A stretch of DNA of 64,000 nt from a virus (Duplodnaviria; Caudoviricetes), in IMG/VR virus record IMGVR_UViG_3300025470_000019, positions 1 through 64,000 of that record. One strand, written 5' to 3'. Within the stretch, counting starts at the first letter, position 1, and each line of letters opens with the position of its first letter. Both the position numbers and the translations under genes were made by a program. Positions 1 through 26,226 of the stretch are shown here, piece by piece. Below the pieces are notes generated by a model that saw only the letters and a list, made by a program, of their open reading frames with translations, was not told the origin of the DNA and searched no databases.

Positions 1-20
1 AGTCCAACTCTCTGGTACCA
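1..20 (+). tRNA. 3' end of a tRNA truncated by the window edge
   Basis: Ends ...ctggtACCA just upstream of a tRNA array; identity not determinable. Confidence 0.55.
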
Positions 21-26
21 AAATAT

Positions 27-102
27 CTAGGTGTGGGAAAGTTGGAAATCCGCCTGCTTTGGAAGCAGGAGAGCGCTGGGTCGGGACCAGCCACCTAGAC
101 CA
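27..102 (+). tRNA. tRNA-Pro(UGG), atypical T-loop (GTCGGGA) and A37
   Basis: Acceptor CTAGGTG/CACCTAG, anticodon arm CCTGC-TTTGGAA-GCAGG, encoded CCA. Confidence 0.85.
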
Positions 103-179
103 GTTTACTCCGCAGGTGTTAGGCACCGTAAGACGGCAGAATTATAGGAGAGTGTTTGTTTTGTATAAATCCTGCGATT

Positions 180-205
180 TATAAATACTCCATAAGGAGA
201 TTTAT
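180..205 (+). promoter_or_regulatory. T4-type late promoter TATAAATA within an RBS-occluding hairpin
   Basis: ATAAAT-A-CTCC-ataa-GGAG-ATTTAT directly before the HNH ATG. Confidence 0.75.
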
Positions 206-751
206 ATGTGGAAATGCAAACACTGCTCTCATGAATTTGATTTTAACAGAACTACAGAAAAAGCGAATCATTCTCGCCATTGTAATATGAATCCTACAAA
301 AAAGAGTTCATATGAACAATTGAAAGTTGGACAACAAGCAAATGTTGAACGAAAATTGGGCAGGTTGCAGAATTATGATGTATCTTGCGAATGTTGCGGT
401 AATACGTTTAGCGTAAAGGAAAGAGAAAAGCAATTTCCTAAACGCAAAAAATATTTTTGTTCTAGGTCTTGTGCCAATTCTTCTGGAGGAAAGGCTAAAG
501 CGGTTAAATATCATCAAGACGAAGTTGCTCATTATACTACTGTTGCTTGGAGACACCACGACAAAAAATGTTTGGTTTGTGGTGAAGAAAATGTCGTTGC
601 GGTTCATCATGTAAATGAAAATCATAACGATAATGATCCAAAGAATTTGGTTCCGTTATGTCCTACGCATCACCAATATATGCACAGCAGATATCGAGAT
701 TTAGTTCAAAGTCAAGTTGATGATTATATAAAAGTTAAATGGGGCACCTGA
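206..751 (+). CDS. HNH homing endonuclease with Zn-finger motifs
   Basis: CxxC motifs; VHHVNENHNDNDPKNLVPLCPTHH HNH motif; AT-rich. Confidence 0.85.
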   Translation: MWKCKHCSHEFDFNRTTEKANHSRHCNMNPTKKSSYEQLKVGQQANVERKLGRLQNYDVSCECCGNTFSVKEREKQFPKRKKYFCSRSCANSSGGKAKAVKYHQDEVAHYTTVAWRHHDKKCLVCGEENVVAVHHVNENHNDNDPKNLVPLCPTHHQYMHSRYRDLVQSQVDDYIKVKWGT

Positions 752-813
752 GTGGGTGCAGACTCTGCCCTTGCACGGCGGAAGATGGGGTTCGACTCCC
801 CAGTGCTCCACCA
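741..813 (+). tRNA. tRNA-Ala(UGC), compact
   Basis: Acceptor GGGGCAC/GTGCTCC with G3:U70, loop CTTGCAC, T-arm TGGGG-TTCGACT-CCCCA, CCA. Confidence 0.8.
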
Positions 814-818
814 ATATA

Positions 819-930
819 GACTTCCTCGGCTGAACCCGGGAAAGGATAGAGTTGTTGATACGTAGCAATAATTCTGTCTGGGAAGATACAGCGTCCGGAC
901 GTAATGTATCAAGGCACACTGTAGGAAGTC
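819..930 (+). ncRNA. Unidentified multi-stem structured RNA in tRNA array
   Basis: Closing helix GACTTCCT/AGGAAGTC; 13-bp GATAGAGTTGTTG/CAATAATTCTGTC; GATACA/TGTATC hairpin. Confidence 0.55.
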
Positions 931-939
931 ACTAAATTT

Positions 940-1022
940 GCGTCTATGGTGAAATTGGCAGACACGGCAGACTTAGAATCTGTTGCTTCGGCGTGGGGGT
1001 TCAAGTCCCTCTAGACGCACCA
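940..1022 (+). tRNA. tRNA-Leu(UAG)
   Basis: Cloverleaf with variable arm, GCAGA-CTTAGAA-TCTGT, CCA. Confidence 0.92.
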
Positions 1023-1030
1023 AGTTTTTT

Positions 1031-1105
1031 GCCTTTGTAGCTCAGTTGGTAGAGCGCTCGGTTGAAGCCCGAGGGTCTGGGGTTCGATTCCCTGCGAAGG
1101 CACCA
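1031..1105 (+). tRNA. tRNA-Phe(GAA)
   Basis: CTCGG-TTGAAGC-CCGAG anticodon arm, canonical D/T arms, CCA. Confidence 0.9.
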
Positions 1106-1112
1106 TAAATTA

Positions 1113-1215
1113 TCCAGCATTCTAGACAGGCTGGAGAGACCTAGCAAGGGTAACAGTGGGGAAATCTTGCGAATATCGGATTGCTGACCACAAGGATCAA
1201 AGGGCTAAACCGATA
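1113..1215 (+). ncRNA. Possible structured RNA in tRNA spacer
   Basis: Hairpins TCCAGC/GCTGGA, GCAAGG/TCTTGC and TATCGG/CCGATA. Confidence 0.35.
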
Positions 1216-1229
1216 AGGTGTAAGGAATT

Positions 1230-1315
1230 GGGAAGGTAAAGCTGTTCGGATACAGCAGTCAGACTGTAAATCTGATCCTTAACGGGGAGTGGTTCGAGTC
1301 CGCACCTTCCCACCA
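1230..1315 (+). tRNA. tRNA-Tyr(GUA)
   Basis: GGGAAGG/CCTTCCC acceptor, TCAGA-CTGTAAA-TCTGA, variable arm, CCA. Confidence 0.9.
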
Positions 1316-1321
1316 AGTTTT

Positions 1322-1397
1322 GGGGACGTAGCTCAATCGGGAGAGCACCAGCTTGTCACGCTGGAGGTAGTGGGATCGAAACCCATCGTCCTCGCCA
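1322..1397 (+). tRNA. tRNA-Asp(GUC)
   Basis: CCAGC-TTGTCAC-GCTGG; T-loop ATCGAAA; CCA. Confidence 0.9.
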
Positions 1398-1415
1398 ACC
1401 CTAAATAAGTTTAAT

Positions 1416-1489
1416 GCGGATATCGTATAATGGTATTATTACAGCCTTCCAAGCTGAAGACGCGAGTTCGATTCTCGCTATCCGCTCCA
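1416..1489 (+). tRNA. tRNA-Gly(UCC)
   Basis: GCGGATA/TATCCGC acceptor, CTTCCAA loop, CCA. Confidence 0.92.
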
Positions 1490-1497
1490 TTTATTAT

Positions 1498-1576
1498 CGC
1501 GGAGTAGAGGAGTCTGGTCGTCCTCGCCTGTCTCATAAGCAGGAAATCGTCGGTTCGAATCCGACTTCCGCAACCA
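1498..1576 (+). tRNA. tRNA-Met(CAU), initiator-like C1:A72 mismatch
   Basis: CGCGGAG 5' strand, CCTGT-CTCATAA-GCAGG, CCA. Confidence 0.88.
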
Positions 1577-1645
1577 AATATGCCCAAGTATCTTTGTCTA
1601 TAAATTCGAACTTATATAAATAATTTGAGTTTATAGGAGGTTCGA

Positions 1646-2146
1646 ATGAAGTGCGAAAACTGCGGAAATACACATATTGGATCATTTGGTTCTGGTAGAT
1701 TTTGTTCCAAGTCTTGTTCTAGAAGTTATTCAACTAAATCTAAACGAGATGATATAAATAAAAGAGTCAAAGAAAAGTTAACTGGAAGAACTCTTAGCGA
1801 AGAGCATCGACAGAAACTTAAAGATTCTTGGAAATCAGGTTCGTATGCTGAACGATGTGTGAGAAAACCACAACCAATAGAAGAATTATTGGTAGAACAG
1901 GGATTTGTTTCTACCCAACACATAAAACGAAGATTGTTTAAAGAAGGTCTAAAAGTAAATATATGTGAAGATTGTGGAATAGGAGATGAATATAATGGGA
2001 AACCTATTGTCCATCAACTCCACCATATTAATGGAAATCCTAAAGATCATCGCATAACAAATTTGCAAATACTCTGCCCTAACTGTCATTCTCAGACAGA
2101 TAATTGGTCAGGTAAAAAACATGCCCGAGTAGCTCAACTGGATTAG
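1646..2146 (+). CDS. HNH homing endonuclease
   Basis: CEDCG...HQLHHINGNPKDHRITNLQILCPNCH; late promoter TATAAATA at 1615-1622. Confidence 0.88.
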   Translation: MKCENCGNTHIGSFGSGRFCSKSCSRSYSTKSKRDDINKRVKEKLTGRTLSEEHRQKLKDSWKSGSYAERCVRKPQPIEELLVEQGFVSTQHIKRRLFKEGLKVNICEDCGIGDEYNGKPIVHQLHHINGNPKDHRITNLQILCPNCHSQTDNWSGKKHARVAQLD

Positions 2147-2200
2147 AGTGCTCGCCTACGAAGCGAAAGGTTGCAGGTTCGAATCCTGTCTTGGGCTCCA
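2123..2200 (+). tRNA. tRNA-Arg(ACG)
   Basis: GCCCGAG/CTTGGGC acceptor, CTACGAA loop, CCA. Confidence 0.9.
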
Positions 2201-2251
2201 GAATAATATGTCCCACACCTCTGCCTTTGGTACGTGTGGGATCTCTACTCT

Positions 2252-2328
2252 CTACCTGTAGGAAAGTCTGGTAATCCGTCTGCTTTGGGTGCAGAAGATC
2301 GGGAGTTCGAATCTCTCCAGGTAGACCA
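2252..2328 (+). tRNA. tRNA-Pro(UGG), second copy, canonical
   Basis: CTACCTG/CAGGTAG acceptor, TCTGC-TTTGGGT-GCAGA, CCA. Confidence 0.9.
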
Positions 2329-2334
2329 GTTCTT

Positions 2335-2408
2335 GTCGGTGAAGCATTAAAGTGATGTGTCAGTCTCCAAAACTGAAGAACACGGGGCGGTACCGTGCAC
2401 CTTCGCCA
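2335..2408 (+). tRNA. tRNA-Trp(CCA), atypical T-loop and acceptor mismatches
   Basis: TCAGT-CTCCAAA-ACTGA; T-arm CACGG-GGCGGTA-CCGTG; CCA. Confidence 0.75.
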
Positions 2409-2426
2409 ATTTTAATCAGGTGATTT

Positions 2427-2864
2427 ATGTTTGATGAAGCAAAGCAAGCAATTATTGAATCGAGTCAGACTTCATCGGTTTATGTCGGTGCGGATAGTAT
2501 TCGATATAAGAAGAACAAGGAATGGTGGGCAAAGTATTCTACCGTGATTATCCTTCACAAGGATTCCAAGCACGGTTGTCAGCTTTGGCACAACTCGGTT
2601 GATATGCGCGACTTTGGCAATCTTCGTCAGAGAATGATCACCGAAGCTGGGTTTGCTATTGAAGCAGCTTCAGAAATTATCGAGGTTATCGGAGATCGAA
2701 AGCTGGAAATTCACCTTGATATTAATCCTGATCCAAAGCACAAGTCTAGTATTGCCGTCAAGGAAGCCCTTGGCTACGTGAAGGGCAGTACTGGACTTGA
2801 TGCTAAGATCAAGCCTGAAGCATTTGCTGCTACTCATGCTGCGGATCATATGGTAAGAAGTTAA
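2427..2864 (+). CDS. RNase H-fold protein, YkuK/DUF458-like
   Basis: VYVGADS...Y.TVIILH...EIHLDINP motifs. Confidence 0.7.
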   Translation: MFDEAKQAIIESSQTSSVYVGADSIRYKKNKEWWAKYSTVIILHKDSKHGCQLWHNSVDMRDFGNLRQRMITEAGFAIEAASEIIEVIGDRKLEIHLDINPDPKHKSSIAVKEALGYVKGSTGLDAKIKPEAFAATHAADHMVRS

Positions 2865-2866
2865 GT

Positions 2867-2895
2867 GGTCGATTAGCTCAGCGGTAGAGCAACTT
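2867..2895 (+). pseudogene. Orphan tRNA 5' half (acceptor strand plus D-arm), Val-like
   Basis: GGTCGAT-TA-GCTC-AGCGGTA-GAGC-AACTT, then abrupt AT-rich HNH promoter. Confidence 0.75.
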
Positions 2896-2935
2896 AAAAA
2901 TATAAATAACTTAGTAATTGAGCTAAGGAGTTTAT

Positions 2936-3433
2936 ATGCATAAATGTGAAATTTGTGATAAAGAATTTGATAATTACCGCAAATTAAATGGCCACAAAAG
3001 CGTCCATCGCTCTGGTGGTAGATATTCGGTTTCTCGTAAAACTAATAAAGAATATTCTTGTTTATCTTGCGGGTCTTTCCCAGTCAAAGCGAAATATTGT
3101 AGTAATGCATGCCAAAGAGAATTTCAGTGGAAGCAGAATTATACTGCAATATCGAACGGAAAGGTTTTGTCTGAGGGGTTAATGCGCAGATATATTACTG
3201 AAGTTCGTGGATATATTTGTGAACACTGCAGCGTGGGCAATGAGTGGAATGGTAAATCGCTAACTCTACAACTAGATCATATAGACGGAAATAGTGATAA
3301 CAACGAACTTTCTAATTTAAGATGGTTGTGTCCTAATTGCCACACCCAAACCCAAACTTGGTGCGGGAGAAATAAGAAAAACACTAAAAGGAATAGATAT
3401 TTACGAAAATACAAAACAGGGGTCGTTAGTTAA
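2936..3433 (+). CDS. HNH homing endonuclease
   Basis: CEHC...LQLDHIDGNSDNNELSNLRWLCPNCH; C2H2-like N-terminus; TATAAATA at 2901-2908. Confidence 0.88.
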   Translation: MHKCEICDKEFDNYRKLNGHKSVHRSGGRYSVSRKTNKEYSCLSCGSFPVKAKYCSNACQREFQWKQNYTAISNGKVLSEGLMRRYITEVRGYICEHCSVGNEWNGKSLTLQLDHIDGNSDNNELSNLRWLCPNCHTQTQTWCGRNKKNTKRNRYLRKYKTGVVS

Positions 3434-3493
3434 ATGGTATAACCTCGCTTTTACATAGCGATGTCGGCAGTTCAATCCCGTCATCCGGTACCA
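3420..3493 (+). tRNA. tRNA-Val(UAC), degenerate/chimeric acceptor stem
   Basis: TCGCT-TTTACAT-AGCGA arm and CCA present, but 5' GGGTCGT pairs poorly with 3' ATCCGGT. Confidence 0.6.
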
Positions 3494-3559
3494 GAATTAT
3501 GTGTCATCCTCTGGGTGAGATATAGGGCAGGCAGTTTTAGATGTGATTAAAGGTGAATT

Positions 3560-3925
3560 ATGGAAGAGTCGCTAGAAGAGTTTCTTGAACGATGTAGGAA
3601 ACGCAATCGTGAGTTCGTTCAATATGGTATTGATAACTTCTGGTGGGAAACATACAAGGTGACTAATGGGGGTTCATGGGAACCAGTTCCCTTCCCCTAT
3701 GTGTTTGTAATGGATTGTCGTTGGCTTCGACAGATGAATAATGGTTTGTGGGAAACCATTGGTATTCTTGAGCCACATCAAAATACTATGGCACATGTTT
3801 TAGCGGCTTTTGATATTTTTGCAAGTGTATCTGAGGCAAAGAAAAACGGTTGGCATAAACCCATCACTCCTGGTGAATATCTGTTTAAGAAAACAGGTCG
3901 TAGATTGGTAGTTGAAGAAGAATAG
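3560..3925 (+). CDS. Hypothetical protein, C-terminus loosely S4-like
   Basis: ORF with SD; LAAFDIFASVSEAKKNGW segment. Confidence 0.6.
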   Translation: MEESLEEFLERCRKRNREFVQYGIDNFWWETYKVTNGGSWEPVPFPYVFVMDCRWLRQMNNGLWETIGILEPHQNTMAHVLAAFDIFASVSEAKKNGWHKPITPGEYLFKKTGRRLVVEEE

Positions 3926-3933
3926 ATATCACT

Positions 3934-4103
3934 GCCGACGGGCGGTGTAAGAAGTGTGACTGAATAATCTCCTGCCAGAGGAGATAAAGTAGACTCGGGG
4001 AGTGGTTCTCCTGCTCAACCAGCTAACGGGTCGTGGCGGCGAAATAGATACAGAGGTATTTGGCTAGCTGCTTGAGGGTATATCCGAATCCCTTCACTTC
4101 GCC
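3934..4103 (+). ncRNA. Unidentified ~170-nt structured RNA
   Basis: Long-range GAAGTG/CACTTC; hairpins ATCTCCT/AGGAGAT, GGGGAG/CTCCT, GAGGG/CCCTT; no ORF. Confidence 0.6.
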
Positions 4104-4120
4104 TTTATATAAATAGATGC

Positions 4121-4408: not shown

Positions 4409-4683
4409 TGGATTTAAATGTTATTGCCCCTCTGATTAAACAATACGGATTTCCTATTGTTGCTTCGGTTGGTATGGGATACTTTGTATTTTTCATTTAT
4501 AAATTTGTTACTGATAGACTTATGCCTCTTATTGGAGAGACGAATGGAATTTTGATTGCACTGATTGATCGCATTAGAATGTTAGACAATGATCTCATTA
4601 GGCTACAACAGAAAGTAAGTGTTGTGCTGCAGATTAAAGGGGAACATAATTATGCAGATAAATCTGAAGATCGAAATCCTTAA
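4405..4683 (+). CDS. Small membrane protein (paralog pair, 2)
   Basis: LIKQYGFPIVAS; RI.MLDNDLIRL resembles the upstream paralog. Confidence 0.7.
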   Translation: MMDLNVIAPLIKQYGFPIVASVGMGYFVFFIYKFVTDRLMPLIGETNGILIALIDRIRMLDNDLIRLQQKVSVVLQIKGEHNYADKSEDRNP

Positions 4684-4733
4684 AGTCTTCACACTCGACT
4701 TCTCTTTCTGCTCAGAAAAGAAGGGGAAGAAAG

Positions 4734-5120
4734 ATGAGAAAGCTATTTCTACTTCTGGCTCTGACAGCAAGTCAGGCTAACGCTAGCGAACAAGTATTTC
4801 AATTCAAGAATCCTTCTTTTGGTGGCGGACCAGGAGCGAGTGCTCAGTGGATAACGACAGAAAACGAGCAGCATGCAAGACAACAGGCTATTCAGGATAA
4901 GATTGACGCTGCTTCTGAGAAGGCACACGAACTGTTTCTAAATGCATATAGACTGGGAGCTTGGAAACGAGCATACGCTATGGCGGTCTCTATGAGAGGA
5001 ATCTGGTCTGGACATCTTGCTGCGTATTATGATATGATGGCAGAAAGAATCAAAGATATTCAAGCTAATCCGCCACGCCCGAAAGAATGGGACGGAATTT
5101 ACCGTGCCCAAACTAAATGA
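4734..5120 (+). pseudogene. Chimeric ORF: CsgF-like N-terminus fused to adenylate-cyclase-like C-terminal tail
   Basis: Signal peptide plus QVFQFKNPSFGG (CsgF-like), then YYDMMAERI...PPRPKEWDGIYRAQTK (typical end of CHASE2/cyclase proteins). Confidence 0.6.
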
Positions 5121-5148
5121 GTTTATAGGGCAACGGCTAAATAAGAAT

Positions 5149-5730
5149 ATGAAACATACCCATCATATCATACCTAAACACATGGGCGGGTCAGATGACC
5201 CGGAAAACTTAATAGAATTAACAATAAAAGAACATGCCGAAGCGCACCGAGTATTGTATGAACAACATGGAAAATGGCAAGACAAAGTAGCATGGCAAGG
5301 ATTATTAGGGTTAATACCTCACGAGCAAATCATGAAAGAAATGTATGCTGCACGTCGAGGATCTGGAAATAATTTTTATGGAAAAAAACATACAGAAGAA
5401 ACAAAAAAACTTATTAGCGAAAAAACCAAAGGAAAATTAAAAGGTATTCCAAAATCTGCTGAGACTCGTAAAAAGATGAGCGAAAATAATGGTAGATCTC
5501 AGTTAGGAAAAACCCCTTGGAATAAAGGTAAGACTAGTGTTCAGCTAAAAAGTTTAGAAACTAAAATGAAAGTTAGCAAACCTGTAAATTACAACGGAAT
5601 TGAATATTATTCAATAAAAGAAGCAGCAATACAAAATAATACTACACCTTATTATATAAAAAAACACATAAAAGGAATCACAACTCTTAATAGGAAGTGT
5701 ACTACTCGAAACCGAAGAACAAATAAATAA
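5149..5730 (+). CDS. HNH endonuclease with NUMOD3-like repeats
   Basis: HHIIPKHMGGSDDPENLIELTIKEHAEAH; KHTEETKK motifs; start set at ATG after CTAAATA. Confidence 0.85.
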   Translation: MKHTHHIIPKHMGGSDDPENLIELTIKEHAEAHRVLYEQHGKWQDKVAWQGLLGLIPHEQIMKEMYAARRGSGNNFYGKKHTEETKKLISEKTKGKLKGIPKSAETRKKMSENNGRSQLGKTPWNKGKTSVQLKSLETKMKVSKPVNYNGIEYYSIKEAAIQNNTTPYYIKKHIKGITTLNRKCTTRNRRTNK

Positions 5731-24672: not shown

Positions 24673-24985
24673 TTCATTCTTTGAACCAGAAATGGTGAAC
24701 GAAGTCCAGACGCTGGATGAGAAGATCAAACAGCGTAGGACGCAAATGCTGATACATTCCTATCGGTATTATGTCCTAGACGACCCTGTGATCACTGACG
24801 AAAAGTGGCAACAGTGGGCTGATGAGTTGGTCGAGCTTCAAAAGCGAAAGCTGAAGATTGGCTTCTACGATAAAGAATTCTCTGACTGGACTGGTGCTAC
24901 TGGAATGCATCTTCCATTCGATAAGTGGATTAGAGACAAGGTAAAATACCTAAATAAAATATCAGTTGTTGACAATCAACAATAA
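24662..24985 (+). CDS. Stand-alone NAD-dependent DNA ligase domain Ia-like protein
   Basis: HSYRYYVLDDPVITDEKWQQWADELVEL. Confidence 0.7.
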   Translation: MTLDSFFEPEMVNEVQTLDEKIKQRRTQMLIHSYRYYVLDDPVITDEKWQQWADELVELQKRKLKIGFYDKEFSDWTGATGMHLPFDKWIRDKVKYLNKISVVDNQQ

Positions 24986-25318
24986 AGGCGGAAAGACTGG
25001 GGTTCGACTCCCCACACCTCCACCATCATTCATTACCTTTGTGGTGCCTGCTGGGCAGCAATGGCTTTCTCGGTTACTCGTAAGTGATCATAACGGTAAC
25101 TGTGGATAGTGAAAAGGTCTCCTAGCGCAAGGAGATACCCAACGTGATGGATGATGATGGGGGTGAACTGGGATCGATTTTCGTGTAATAGGGCGATCGA
25201 GACTGATTCGGTGGTCGAGCGACCAAAAACAATAAATGCTAACGATAACGAAAGCATTGCTCTAGCTGCATAAGCTAGACTAGGGTTCGGTGGGTACCTC
25301 GTAACAGAAACCCACCAC
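24960..25318 (+). ncRNA. ssrA: tmRNA, circularly permuted two-piece (alphaproteobacterial type); tag ANDNESIALAA at 25238-25273
   Basis: T-arm plus CACCTCC-A-CCA (ends 25025) precedes the 5' acceptor GGGGGTG (25159), with G3:U70; tag ORF; terminal GGTGGGT...ACCCACC hairpin. Confidence 0.9.
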
Positions 25319-25322
25319 TTAT

Positions 25323-25349
25323 TCCCCTGTCGTCTAACGGTAGGACATC
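25323..25349 (+). pseudogene. Orphan tRNA-Gln-like 5' half
   Basis: TCCCCTG-TC-GTCT-AACGGTA-GGAC-A then AT-rich endonuclease leader. Confidence 0.75.
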
Positions 25350-25384
25350 TAAATATTTTGATAAATAAAACATAAGGATAAGAT

Positions 25385-26020
25385 ATGTTTTATACAATAT
25401 ATTCGATAACAAATTTATCAGATGGCAAAATATATATCGGAAAGCATAAAACCAATAATTTAGATGATGGTTATATGGGTTCTGGTACACTGATTCGTAG
25501 AGCCATTTCTAAACATGGTATCGAAAACTTTAAAAAAGAAATTTTATTCGTTTTCGATAACAAAAACGAAATGGACTTAAAAGAAAAAGAATTAGTCAAT
25601 GAAAATTTTGTTTTGTCTACGTTAACCTACAACTTATCTTTAGGTGGAAAAGGTGGGTGGAATCCTAGTAAATCTAAAGTCGCATTTCTTGGAAAAAAGC
25701 ATTCCGAAGAAAGTAGAAAACGAATAGGTGAAGCTAGTAGGAATAGAATTCATTCACCAGAATCCAAAAAGAAAATGAGTGATTCTCGTAGGGGTGTCTC
25801 AAAACCCAATACATCTATTTCTCTTAAAGGAAAAATGAAAACAGATGAACATAAAAAGAAAATAAGTGAATCGCTGAAAAATAGAGATCCTAAAAAAGTT
25901 CCTAAGGGTTATAAAAGAAAATCTAAACAGATATGGATCAATAACGGAGAATATTCTACCAGAATTAACTCAGAGTTGTTGATTCCAAACGGATTCATCA
26001 AAGGAAGATTAAAGAAATAG
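25385..26020 (+). CDS. GIY-YIG (Seg-like) homing endonuclease with NUMOD3
   Basis: YTIYSITNLSDGKIYIGKH...GYMGSG; KKHSEESRK. Confidence 0.9.
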   Translation: MFYTIYSITNLSDGKIYIGKHKTNNLDDGYMGSGTLIRRAISKHGIENFKKEILFVFDNKNEMDLKEKELVNENFVLSTLTYNLSLGGKGGWNPSKSKVAFLGKKHSEESRKRIGEASRNRIHSPESKKKMSDSRRGVSKPNTSISLKGKMKTDEHKKKISESLKNRDPKKVPKGYKRKSKQIWINNGEYSTRINSELLIPNGFIKGRLKK

Positions 26021-26021
26021 T

Positions 26022-26097
26022 TGCTCTCTGGTGCAATTGGCAGCACGTCTGACTCTGACTCAGAAGGTTCCAGGTTCGACCCCTGGGAGAGCATCCA
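26022..26097 (+). tRNA. tRNA-Gln(CUG)
   Basis: TGCTCTC/GAGAGCA, TCTGA-CTCTGAC-TCAGA, CCA. Confidence 0.9.
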
Positions 26098-26106
26098 ATT
26101 TTTTAG

Positions 26107-26135
26107 TTGACATCACAGTCAACACCGTGTATAAT
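26107..26135 (+). promoter_or_regulatory. Perfect sigma70 promoter TTGACA-17-TATAAT
   Basis: TTGACA tcacagtcaacaccgtg TATAAT. Confidence 0.8.
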
Positions 26136-26152
26136 ACGAAAACAATTTACAT

Positions 26153-26226
26153 TGCCCCTTCCTCTAATGGTAAGAGAGCGGACTTTGAATCCGTCAATCT
26201 TGGTTCGAATCCAGTCGGGGGATCCA
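26153..26226 (+). tRNA. tRNA-Gln(UUG), chimeric acceptor and T stems
   Basis: GCGGA-CTTTGAA-TCCGT; 5' TGCCCCT mispairs with 3' CGGGGGA at two positions. Confidence 0.7.

Follow-up and report, generated by a model that had tools for sequence, protein, structure and literature searches.

HNH nuclease genes that end inside tRNA genes of a T4-like lake phage are probably the fronts of mobile nuclease-plus-tRNA cassettes

Homing endonucleases usually spare their host by sitting in self-splicing introns or inteins, or between genes. Here, we describe three HNH endonuclease genes—HNH1, HNH2 and HNH3—that lie in a tRNA-rich region of a viral contig, and whose stop codons fall inside the tRNA gene that follows. 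The DNA analysed, hereafter the window, is the first 64 kb of the 79,101-base IMG/VR viral contig IMGVR_UViG_3300025470_000019, which is estimated to be ~47% complete. An earlier reading of the window from its letters alone (the sequence-only reading) had pointed out the three overlaps, and had proposed that tRNA maturation removes the nuclease stop codons so that the products are tagged and degraded, possibly by the phage's own transfer-messenger RNA (tmRNA). The linkage of nuclease gene and tRNA is supported by our analysis. The best reading of it is a set of mobile cassettes, a variant of free-standing homing endonucleases: each HNH gene is likely to be the front of a compact nuclease-plus-tRNA unit that landed in a resident tRNA gene of the same anticodon.

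Several described systems resemble this locus. The gene for the T4 nuclease SegB has the same siting, in the phage tRNA cluster and directly upstream of a tRNA gene (PMC2330249; PMC13096335). Like HNH1–3, segB is absent from the otherwise homologous clusters of relatives, and the likeness extends to the class of target, the targets of SegB being tRNA genes themselves. There are also differences: (i) SegB is a GIY-YIG enzyme while HNH1–3 are HNH enzymes, the only GIY-YIG gene here being the open reading frame (ORF) that begins at position 25385; (ii) segB has no promoter of its own nearby, whereas each HNH gene here has a late-promoter motif; and (iii) descriptions of SegB mention neither a split tRNA gene nor a replacement 5' part brought by the element. 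The F-Tfl nucleases of phage T5 are, like HNH1–3, HNH enzymes encoded among tRNA genes (described in 2004, as cited in PMC2330249); neither orphan tRNA halves nor replacement tRNAs are reported for them (the T5 sequence itself was not examined). In the T5-like phage HdH2, an HNH stop codon overlaps tRNA-Thr by 1 nt, and in T5-type loci the overlap is 1 nt or none, as against 11–24 nt here. A homing endonuclease gene annotated in a T4-like coliphage stops 5 nt short of tRNA-Arg.

In mode, a parallel comes from fungal mitochondria. The mORFs of Allomyces macrogynus atp6 and of Glomus atp6, atp9, cox2 and nad3 consist of an endonuclease ORF accompanied by a foreign version of a portion of the target gene, which takes over, with the native part left as a remnant (PMC3630166; PMC45324). 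As proposed here, a gene is broken, a patch is brought, and the native part is left beside it. In mORFs, however, the target is protein-coding and the C-terminal end is carried in front of the ORF and replaced in frame; here, the target is an RNA gene, and a tRNA 5' part or whole tRNA stands behind the ORF, overlapping its last codons. A literature search found no description of tRNA-splitting nuclease-plus-tRNA cassettes.

The source of the window is a T4-like freshwater (lake) phage. A megablast search of window positions 1–4000 against cultured phages gave no match. The nearest relatives of an 860-aa baseplate-hub/lysozyme-like protein are T4-like phages of Caulobacter, Methylophilales, Synechococcus and Pseudomonas (30–36% identity), and DNA of the window occurs in freshwater metagenomes; the matching runs are all of DNA, and for positions 1–3600 no RNA run is listed. 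For comparison, we used loci encoding homologues of the RNaseH-like gene at 2427–2864, which lies between HNH2 and HNH3, and mapped their tRNAs and ORFs. These and the other comparison loci carry L numbers below, and X numbers refer to metagenome runs with contigs that contain window DNA. All cassette features and the tmRNA described below are on the plus strand.

The overlaps reported by the sequence-only reading were recovered from the ORF list, ARAGORN and the sequence itself. HNH1 (206–751) ends with a TGA at 749–751, inside tRNA-Ala(UGC) at 741–813, an overlap of 11 nt. HNH2 (1646–2146) ends with a TAG at 2144–2146, inside tRNA-Arg(ACG) at 2123–2200, an overlap of 24 nt. HNH3 (2936–3433) ends with a TAA at 3431–3433, inside a tRNA-Val(UAC)-like sequence at 3420–3493 for which ARAGORN makes no call, an overlap of 14 nt. 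The previously noted GIY-YIG ORF at 25385–26020 does end 1 nt 5' of tRNA-Gln(CUG), which starts at 26022. Assignment of the three overlapping ORFs to HNH endonuclease families holds, with PHROGs E-values of 6e-15 (HNH1), 6e-27 (HNH2) and 2e-30 (HNH3); their Pfam HNH, HNH_2 and HNH_3 matches, at 18.9–21.3 bits, lie slightly below the curated cut-offs. Each ORF has its own start codon, Shine-Dalgarno (SD) sequence and promoter motif, and none is inside an intron or intein. HNH1–3 thus appear to be free-standing homing endonuclease genes, whose cleavage and homing activities are predicted.

Conservation of the overlaps in homologous loci had been named as a way of checking them, and for HNH3 the overlap recurs: homologues with 45–67% identity on seven other viral contigs (L015–L020 and L022) all enter tRNA-Val(UAC), by 10, 23 or 44 nt. 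This pattern of overlap exceeds chance. The alignment of the HNH3 family (A1) has an invariant Asp-His, Asn, Cys-Pro-x-Cys-His core, and protein homology fades near the start of the tRNA. The cassettes are also polymorphic for presence and absence: all three HNH genes are missing from the syntenic sites of L030–L040, and contigs from other samples carry empty alleles. The evidence for the cassettes includes uninvaded alleles at all three sites and orphan tRNA pieces at 1582–1592 and 2867–2895.

The site of HNH3 illustrates both. In six close relatives, whose RNaseH-like proteins are 77–93% identical to that of the window, an intact tRNA-Val(UAC) lies -1 to 3 nt after the RNaseH-like stop codon, and there is no nuclease. 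In the window, the RNaseH-like stop codon is closely followed by only the 5'-terminal 29 nt of the resident gene for tRNA-Val(UAC) (2867–2895; acceptor strand, D arm and beginning of the anticodon stem), then by a 40-nt leader (2896–2935, with a late-promoter motif at 2901–2908, an SD sequence and a hairpin), by HNH3 with its C2H2-like N-terminal finger, and by the tRNA-Val-like sequence, the 5' part of which encodes the last four codons and the TAA stop of HNH3. An X6 contig, from another sample, joins position 2891 to 3462 via an 18-nt anticodon arm, and so represents the uninvaded allele. Another X6 contig from the same sample covers the whole insertion (2451–3499) with 17 differences, which indicates that the arrangement is not an assembly accident. 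As a separate observation, contigs from X1 and X9 join 2891 to 3267. They lack 375 nt between the orphan tRNA-Val half and the middle of HNH3, and may stem from a related cassette variant or a truncated cassette in the same lakes.

The tRNA-Val-like sequence behind HNH3 is a chimeric pseudo-tRNA, cassette-derived to ~3461 and resident from ~3462 onwards (T arm and 3' acceptor strand). Its 3' strand is identical to that of the intact tRNA-Val of L041, while its 5' strand is foreign. Only one Watson-Crick and two G:U pairs form across the seven acceptor positions, the T stem has an A-C mismatch, and fold prediction of 3420–3493 gives no cloverleaf (z 0.17). The Rfam score is 35.9 bits, versus 60–66 bits for tRNA-Val in relatives. 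These features suggest that the HNH3 cassette cut tRNA-Val in the anticodon stem and that, unlike in other phages, it left a chimera here that cannot fold.

In the other phages, HNH3 homologues occur in different surroundings. The upstream neighbour is the RNaseH-like gene in the window, tRNA-Leu in L015–L018 and L022, and tRNA-Cys in L020; nonetheless, ~36 nt of the leader are identical in the window and L015–L018. Each homologue is preceded by an orphan tRNA-Val 5' half. The cassettes of L015–L019 bring along a complete tRNA-Val, beyond which lies what is left of the resident gene, its 3' remnant. Pairing between this remnant and the orphan 5' half extends over 7/7 positions (six Watson-Crick, one G:U) in L015, L017 and L018; in L015, pairing of the orphan half with the cassette's own tRNA strand amounts to only two Watson-Crick pairs and one G:U. 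The carried tRNA-Val copies depart from the resident gene in two stems, D and acceptor, where the changes compensate one another; these differences would fit immunity to the nuclease. Decay stages are visible in two loci: in L022, the HNH gene has an in-frame stop but retains its junction with tRNA-Val, while L018 shows a late stage of an HNH1-like cassette (see below).

Insertion of HNH2 is read from a comparable set of remnants. At the HNH2 site, relatives L030–L040 have an uninterrupted element of ~83 nt, located between tRNA-Met or tRNA-Gly and tRNA-Pro(UGG). It has an Arg(ACG) anticodon loop and begins with the same 11 nt that are found at 1582–1592 of the window, where they form an orphan piece apparently severed by the HNH2 cassette. 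The last 29 nt of the window's tRNA-Arg (2172–2200) are identical to the 3' end of the same element. Between these retained first 11 and last 29 nt lie a leader (1593–1645, with a late-promoter motif at 1615–1622 within a hairpin whose 3' arm covers the region from SD to start), HNH2, and, brought by the cassette, the first two-thirds of a canonical tRNA-Arg(ACG). Positions 1–24 of this tRNA encode the last seven codons and TAG stop of HNH2. The seven acceptor nucleotides of the orphan piece pair 7/7 with 2190–2196, and the rebuilt acceptor stem has six Watson-Crick pairs and one G:U. ARAGORN calls the tRNA and Rfam scores it at 58.9 bits; it looks functional. We read the site as one where the cassette would have cut the resident tRNA-Arg-like gene after nucleotide 11 and rebuilt a tRNA-Arg able to work.

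HNH2 has an N-terminal zinc finger, and its Pfam matches (HNH, HNH_3 and zf-FCS) are all sub-threshold. At the DNA level it is similar to TflIV-like HNH genes located among the tRNA genes of T4-like coliphages; HNH2 and HNH3 both have DNA and protein similarity to these TflIV-like genes and to HNH genes of T5-like phages. An exact search of viral contigs for the 5' part of the cassette's tRNA-Arg found none. The ~83-nt resident element is itself unusual: its acceptor stem is good, and a T arm, an Arg(ACG) anticodon arm and a long extra region are present, but a D arm is not. The L040 copy shows compensatory changes in the anticodon stem. ARAGORN makes no call for it, and the L031 and L032 copies have no Rfam match at E up to 0.01.

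At the third site, the HNH1 cassette appears to have replaced the resident tRNA-Ala outright. The left flank of the cassette, up to ~145, corresponds to the flank immediately 5' of an ordinary tRNA-Ala in relative L031, and the spacer downstream of position 813 is common to the window and its relatives. Between these flanks, relatives have a different, canonical tRNA-Ala; the window has a leader (146–205, with a late-promoter motif at 180–187, an SD sequence and a hairpin pairing the promoter element with the SD-to-start region), HNH1, and a cassette-borne tRNA-Ala(UGC) that supplies the TGA stop of HNH1 from its positions 9–11. An X7 contig, from another sample, joins position 143 to 806. The Pfam match of HNH1 is to HNH_2 (18.9 bits, below the cut-off). 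Distant homologues occur in the tRNA clusters of jumbo phages, and viral contigs, when searched with HNH1, yielded no relative.

The tRNA-Ala of the HNH1 cassette is odd. ARAGORN calls it, it has a G3:U70 pair, its CCA is encoded, and folding is predicted for the acceptor, anticodon and T arms. Its D arm is non-standard. Scored as a tRNA it reaches only 25 bits, and Rfam favours a tmRNA model. The same odd tRNA-Ala is found in L018, with a compensatory change in the T stem. There, the ~45 nt between tRNA-Met and the odd tRNA-Ala resemble the 3' end of HNH1, supporting the idea of a working tRNA that outlives its nuclease. In L017, a cassette of the same design is combined with tRNA-Ala, and the ORF running into this tRNA was considered as a member of the HNH1 family. 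This candidate was rejected: similarity is confined to the N-terminal zinc-finger region (E 0.002), and the ORF matches only PHROG families of unknown function. Two further observations concern the likeness to tmRNA. Firstly, the T arm of tRNA-Ala 741–813 is identical over 17 nt to that of the tmRNA acceptor piece (24990–25026). Secondly, the best Rfam model for 741–813 is tmRNA (23 bits), and the cassette-borne tRNA-Ala of L017 also matches tmRNA (35.7 bits).

A fourth cassette of the same design, recognized by sequence reading and pairing counts, spans 25323–26226. It comprises an orphan tRNA-Gln 5' half (25323–25349), a SegE-like GIY-YIG gene (25385–26020; PHROG homing endonuclease, E 2e-54), a complete tRNA-Gln(CUG) (26022–26097), and a degenerate tRNA-Gln(UUG) (26153–26226; Rfam 34.4 bits for 26153–26223). 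The orphan half pairs with the distant 3' strand of the degenerate tRNA-Gln(UUG) by six Watson-Crick pairs and one G:U, while the latter's own 5' strand has two mismatches with that 3' strand. A sigma-70-like promoter (TTGACA, 17-nt spacer, TATAAT) lies at 26108–26136, between tRNA-Gln(CUG) and the degraded tRNA-Gln(UUG).

Insertion in or near the anticodon stem, as in tRNA-Val, tRNA-Gln and the tRNA-Ala of L017, resembles the known position of group I introns in tRNA genes, and the orphan halves look like exons. The HNH genes could, hypothetically, reside in self-splicing introns of tRNA genes, with the flanking halves being joined at the RNA level. We give this explanation almost no credence. 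No group I or group II intron model of Rfam matches window positions 1–31000 at E up to 1, and on this basis the group I reading was rejected. The non-coding sequence amounts to only ~40 nt before each HNH ORF and none after it. In addition, the orphan Val half of the window pairs poorly with the 3' strand (three Watson-Crick and two G:U pairs), and in most loci the downstream copy is a complete tRNA, so that splicing is not needed.

The signals in front of the three HNH genes point to late expression. The T4 late-promoter motif TATAAATA occurs 19 times in the window (2.35 expected), including once upstream of each HNH start, at a distance of 18–27 nt (positions 180, 1615 and 2901). In every case, the motif is predicted to pair with the SD-to-start region in a leader hairpin, with predicted energies of -12.2 kcal/mol for HNH1 (z -2.7), -14.4 kcal/mol for HNH2 (z -3.7; 0/200 shuffles as stable) and -12.8 kcal/mol for HNH3 (z -4.1). 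Endonuclease genes of T4 are known to have a late promoter immediately 5' of, or inside, a hairpin, such that only late transcripts, which start inside the hairpin, are translated. The same combination of promoter and hairpin hiding SD and start is seen at HNH1–3, where, in distinction to T4, it is read from motif and predicted folding alone. If expression is indeed late-only, the nuclease message is a late transcript that runs on into the tRNA.

The proposed cassette thus has the following order: a T4-type late promoter, a hairpin by which the ribosome site of read-through transcripts would be masked, the HNH ORF, and a fused tRNA gene or the 5' part of one. We infer that the nucleases, made from late transcripts only, cut uninvaded tRNA genes near the insertion points, and that the carried tRNA copies, with their differing D-stem and acceptor sequences, escape cutting. 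The overlap would keep the nuclease linked to its carried copy. The sequence-only reading had suggested that the overlap ties a selfish gene to a useful tRNA, and this agrees with the present picture, in which nuclease and tRNA (or tRNA 5' part) travel as one cassette.

Why, then, do the stop codons fall inside tRNA genes? The HNH ORFs are joined to their tRNAs without a spacer and have no stop of their own; the stop triplet comes from the tRNA 5' region. Such triplets are abundant there: TAG occupies positions 8–10 in 256/484 (53%) distinct phage tRNA genes, and 61% of tRNA/frame combinations yield a stop within 45 nt. An overlap is, in itself, cheap to produce. Since the ORFs run to the first in-frame stop met in that region, the overlap arises as a by-product of fusion; within the HNH3 family, its depth varies with the tRNA sequence. 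The larger overlapping ORFs with a family match are mostly nucleases. Two side observations concern other phages. In L015, a DUF559/MTES_1575-type (restriction-endonuclease-like) ORF at 965–1534 runs 18 nt into tRNA-Lys(UUU): another nuclease family, with the same junction. In L028 (Gordonia phage Mareelih, OP820470.1), the region 770–1294 is annotated as HNH endonuclease-like; an annotated tRNA-Tyr lies within it and tRNA-Pro adjoins it, possibly marking a decayed cassette in a cultured actinophage.

The same figures bear on a rival explanation, plain compaction, in which nuclease genes among closely packed tRNAs happen to lose their stop codon and so come to extend into the next tRNA, with neither mobility nor replacement of the tRNA. 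Of the 125 distinct ORFs with an end close to a tRNA in the comparison loci, 25 overlap this tRNA and 39 stop no more than 10 nt away, and, in line with compaction, tRNA 5' regions are rich in stops and a methyltransferase ORF also overlaps a tRNA. Compaction leaves unexplained, however, (i) the pairing between orphan tRNA halves and distant 3' remnants, (ii) the empty alleles in close relatives, (iii) the identical leader in different contexts, and (iv) the tRNA sequences that differ from the resident gene exactly where a nuclease is present. The remnants and empty alleles largely refute it, and we regard it as very improbable.

Several points weigh against the mobile-cassette reading, or limit its reach. 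The methyltransferase case indicates that an overlap is not specific to nucleases: in L038 and L039, an ORF for a 225-aa S-adenosylmethionine-dependent (SAM) methyltransferase (4442–5119) is inserted between the RNaseH-like gene and tRNA-Val, and it ends at tRNA-Val positions 8–10, implying that general compaction of tRNA clusters contributes. HNH1 and HNH2 are without a close homologue elsewhere, and the case for their mobility consists of one insertion each, plus empty alleles. At the left junction of HNH1 there is no clear orphan piece, and the 3' end of tRNA-Arg may either have been brought with the cassette or be resident. Most comparison loci are metagenome contigs, and the cleavage and homing steps are predictions from sequence.

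The window also encodes the tmRNA that the sequence-only reading had invoked. ARAGORN places a permuted tmRNA at 24933–25364, with the tag quoted by that reading. As mapped here, the two-piece molecule occupies 24926–25319 and has an 11-residue tag ending Leu-Ala-Ala; it scores 103.9 bits with Rfam RF04321 (tmRNA_permuted; gathering score 47) and 80.6 bits with RF01849 (alpha_tmRNA). Contigs of five relatives were searched for a tmRNA and only that of the closest relative was positive, the others being fragments that are 29–66% complete, so that a missing tmRNA is uninformative there.

Removal of a nuclease stop codon by tRNA maturation is not a new idea. For T4 segB, it was proposed earlier that maturation of tRNA-Arg severs the stop codon from the last codon, lowering expression, and the same proposal was made for the T5 F-Tfl nucleases (PMC2330249). 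A literature search found no test of it. Applied to the window, the proposal gains a further step: RNase P would make the HNH message non-stop as a selected function, and tmRNA, possibly the phage's own, would tag the truncated nuclease for degradation and so cap a toxic dose. The geometry is suitable, with the RNase P cut expected 9–24 nt before the HNH stops, good acceptor and T arms in the tRNAs of HNH1 and HNH2, and HNH catalytic domains that end well before the tRNA-encoded tails. A phage tmRNA is present, a stop before tRNA-Val is absent from 8/8 loci of the HNH3 family, and the logic is that already put forward for SegB and F-Tfl.

As a selected function, however, this mechanism seems unlikely. 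The window's HNH3-linked tRNA-Val is a poor RNase P substrate because its acceptor stem is missing. Related nucleases stop 3–8 nt before a tRNA or overlap it by only 1 nt, and the non-nuclease methyltransferase ORF overlaps a tRNA likewise. The range of overlap depths, 10–44 nt, is as expected if an ORF takes the first stop it meets, and the eight HNH3 loci are a single cassette lineage rather than independent cases. The closest relative, too, has a tmRNA although it lacks HNH3. Finally, each HNH gene already has a known form of control, in its late promoter and the hairpin over its ribosome site. In intact cassettes, RNase P cleavage would nevertheless remove the stop codon, and may lower nuclease output, likely as a side effect; tagging of the HNH product by the phage tmRNA is speculative. 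One can tentatively picture, with considerable doubt, how the parts might act together in intact cassettes (HNH2 with tRNA-Arg, or HNH3 with tRNA-Val in L015–L020): the late transcript would be both nuclease message and tRNA precursor, each maturation by RNase P would yield a non-stop mRNA, output would be capped at about the number of ribosomes on the message by then, the truncated product would receive the tag for degradation, and the phage tmRNA would help to clear stalled ribosomes late in infection. If true, the arrangement would amount to an inbuilt limit on the dose of a selfish nuclease and would give a phage tmRNA a natural task.

Other features of the region are as follows. At 2335–2408, the window has a weak tRNA-Trp(CCA)-like sequence (24.5 bits), in which the acceptor stem pairs and the T loop departs from the standard; in relatives L030 and L033 the position is taken by a normal tRNA-Trp. 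A manA RNA motif (RF01745; 61.4 bits, above the gathering score) is found at 3930–4104, and also downstream of the tRNA region in L032, L015 and L017. A fourth HNH gene (HNH plus NUMOD3) lies just outside the tRNA region, at 5104–5730, and overlaps the preceding ORF by 17 nt.

The cassettes described in this work would represent a third route for homing endonucleases, in which a conserved RNA gene is broken and a replacement for it is brought along. With the last codons of the nuclease lying in the replacement tRNA, nuclease and tRNA would be hard to separate. A single phage appears to hold four such cassettes at different stages—one full replacement, one working rebuild and two failed rebuilds—and the empty alleles in close relatives make the life cycle of the element readable from sequence. 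Phage tRNAs counter tRNA-cleaving bacterial defences (PMC13096335), and cassettes of this kind would help to explain the rapid change of phage tRNA sets.

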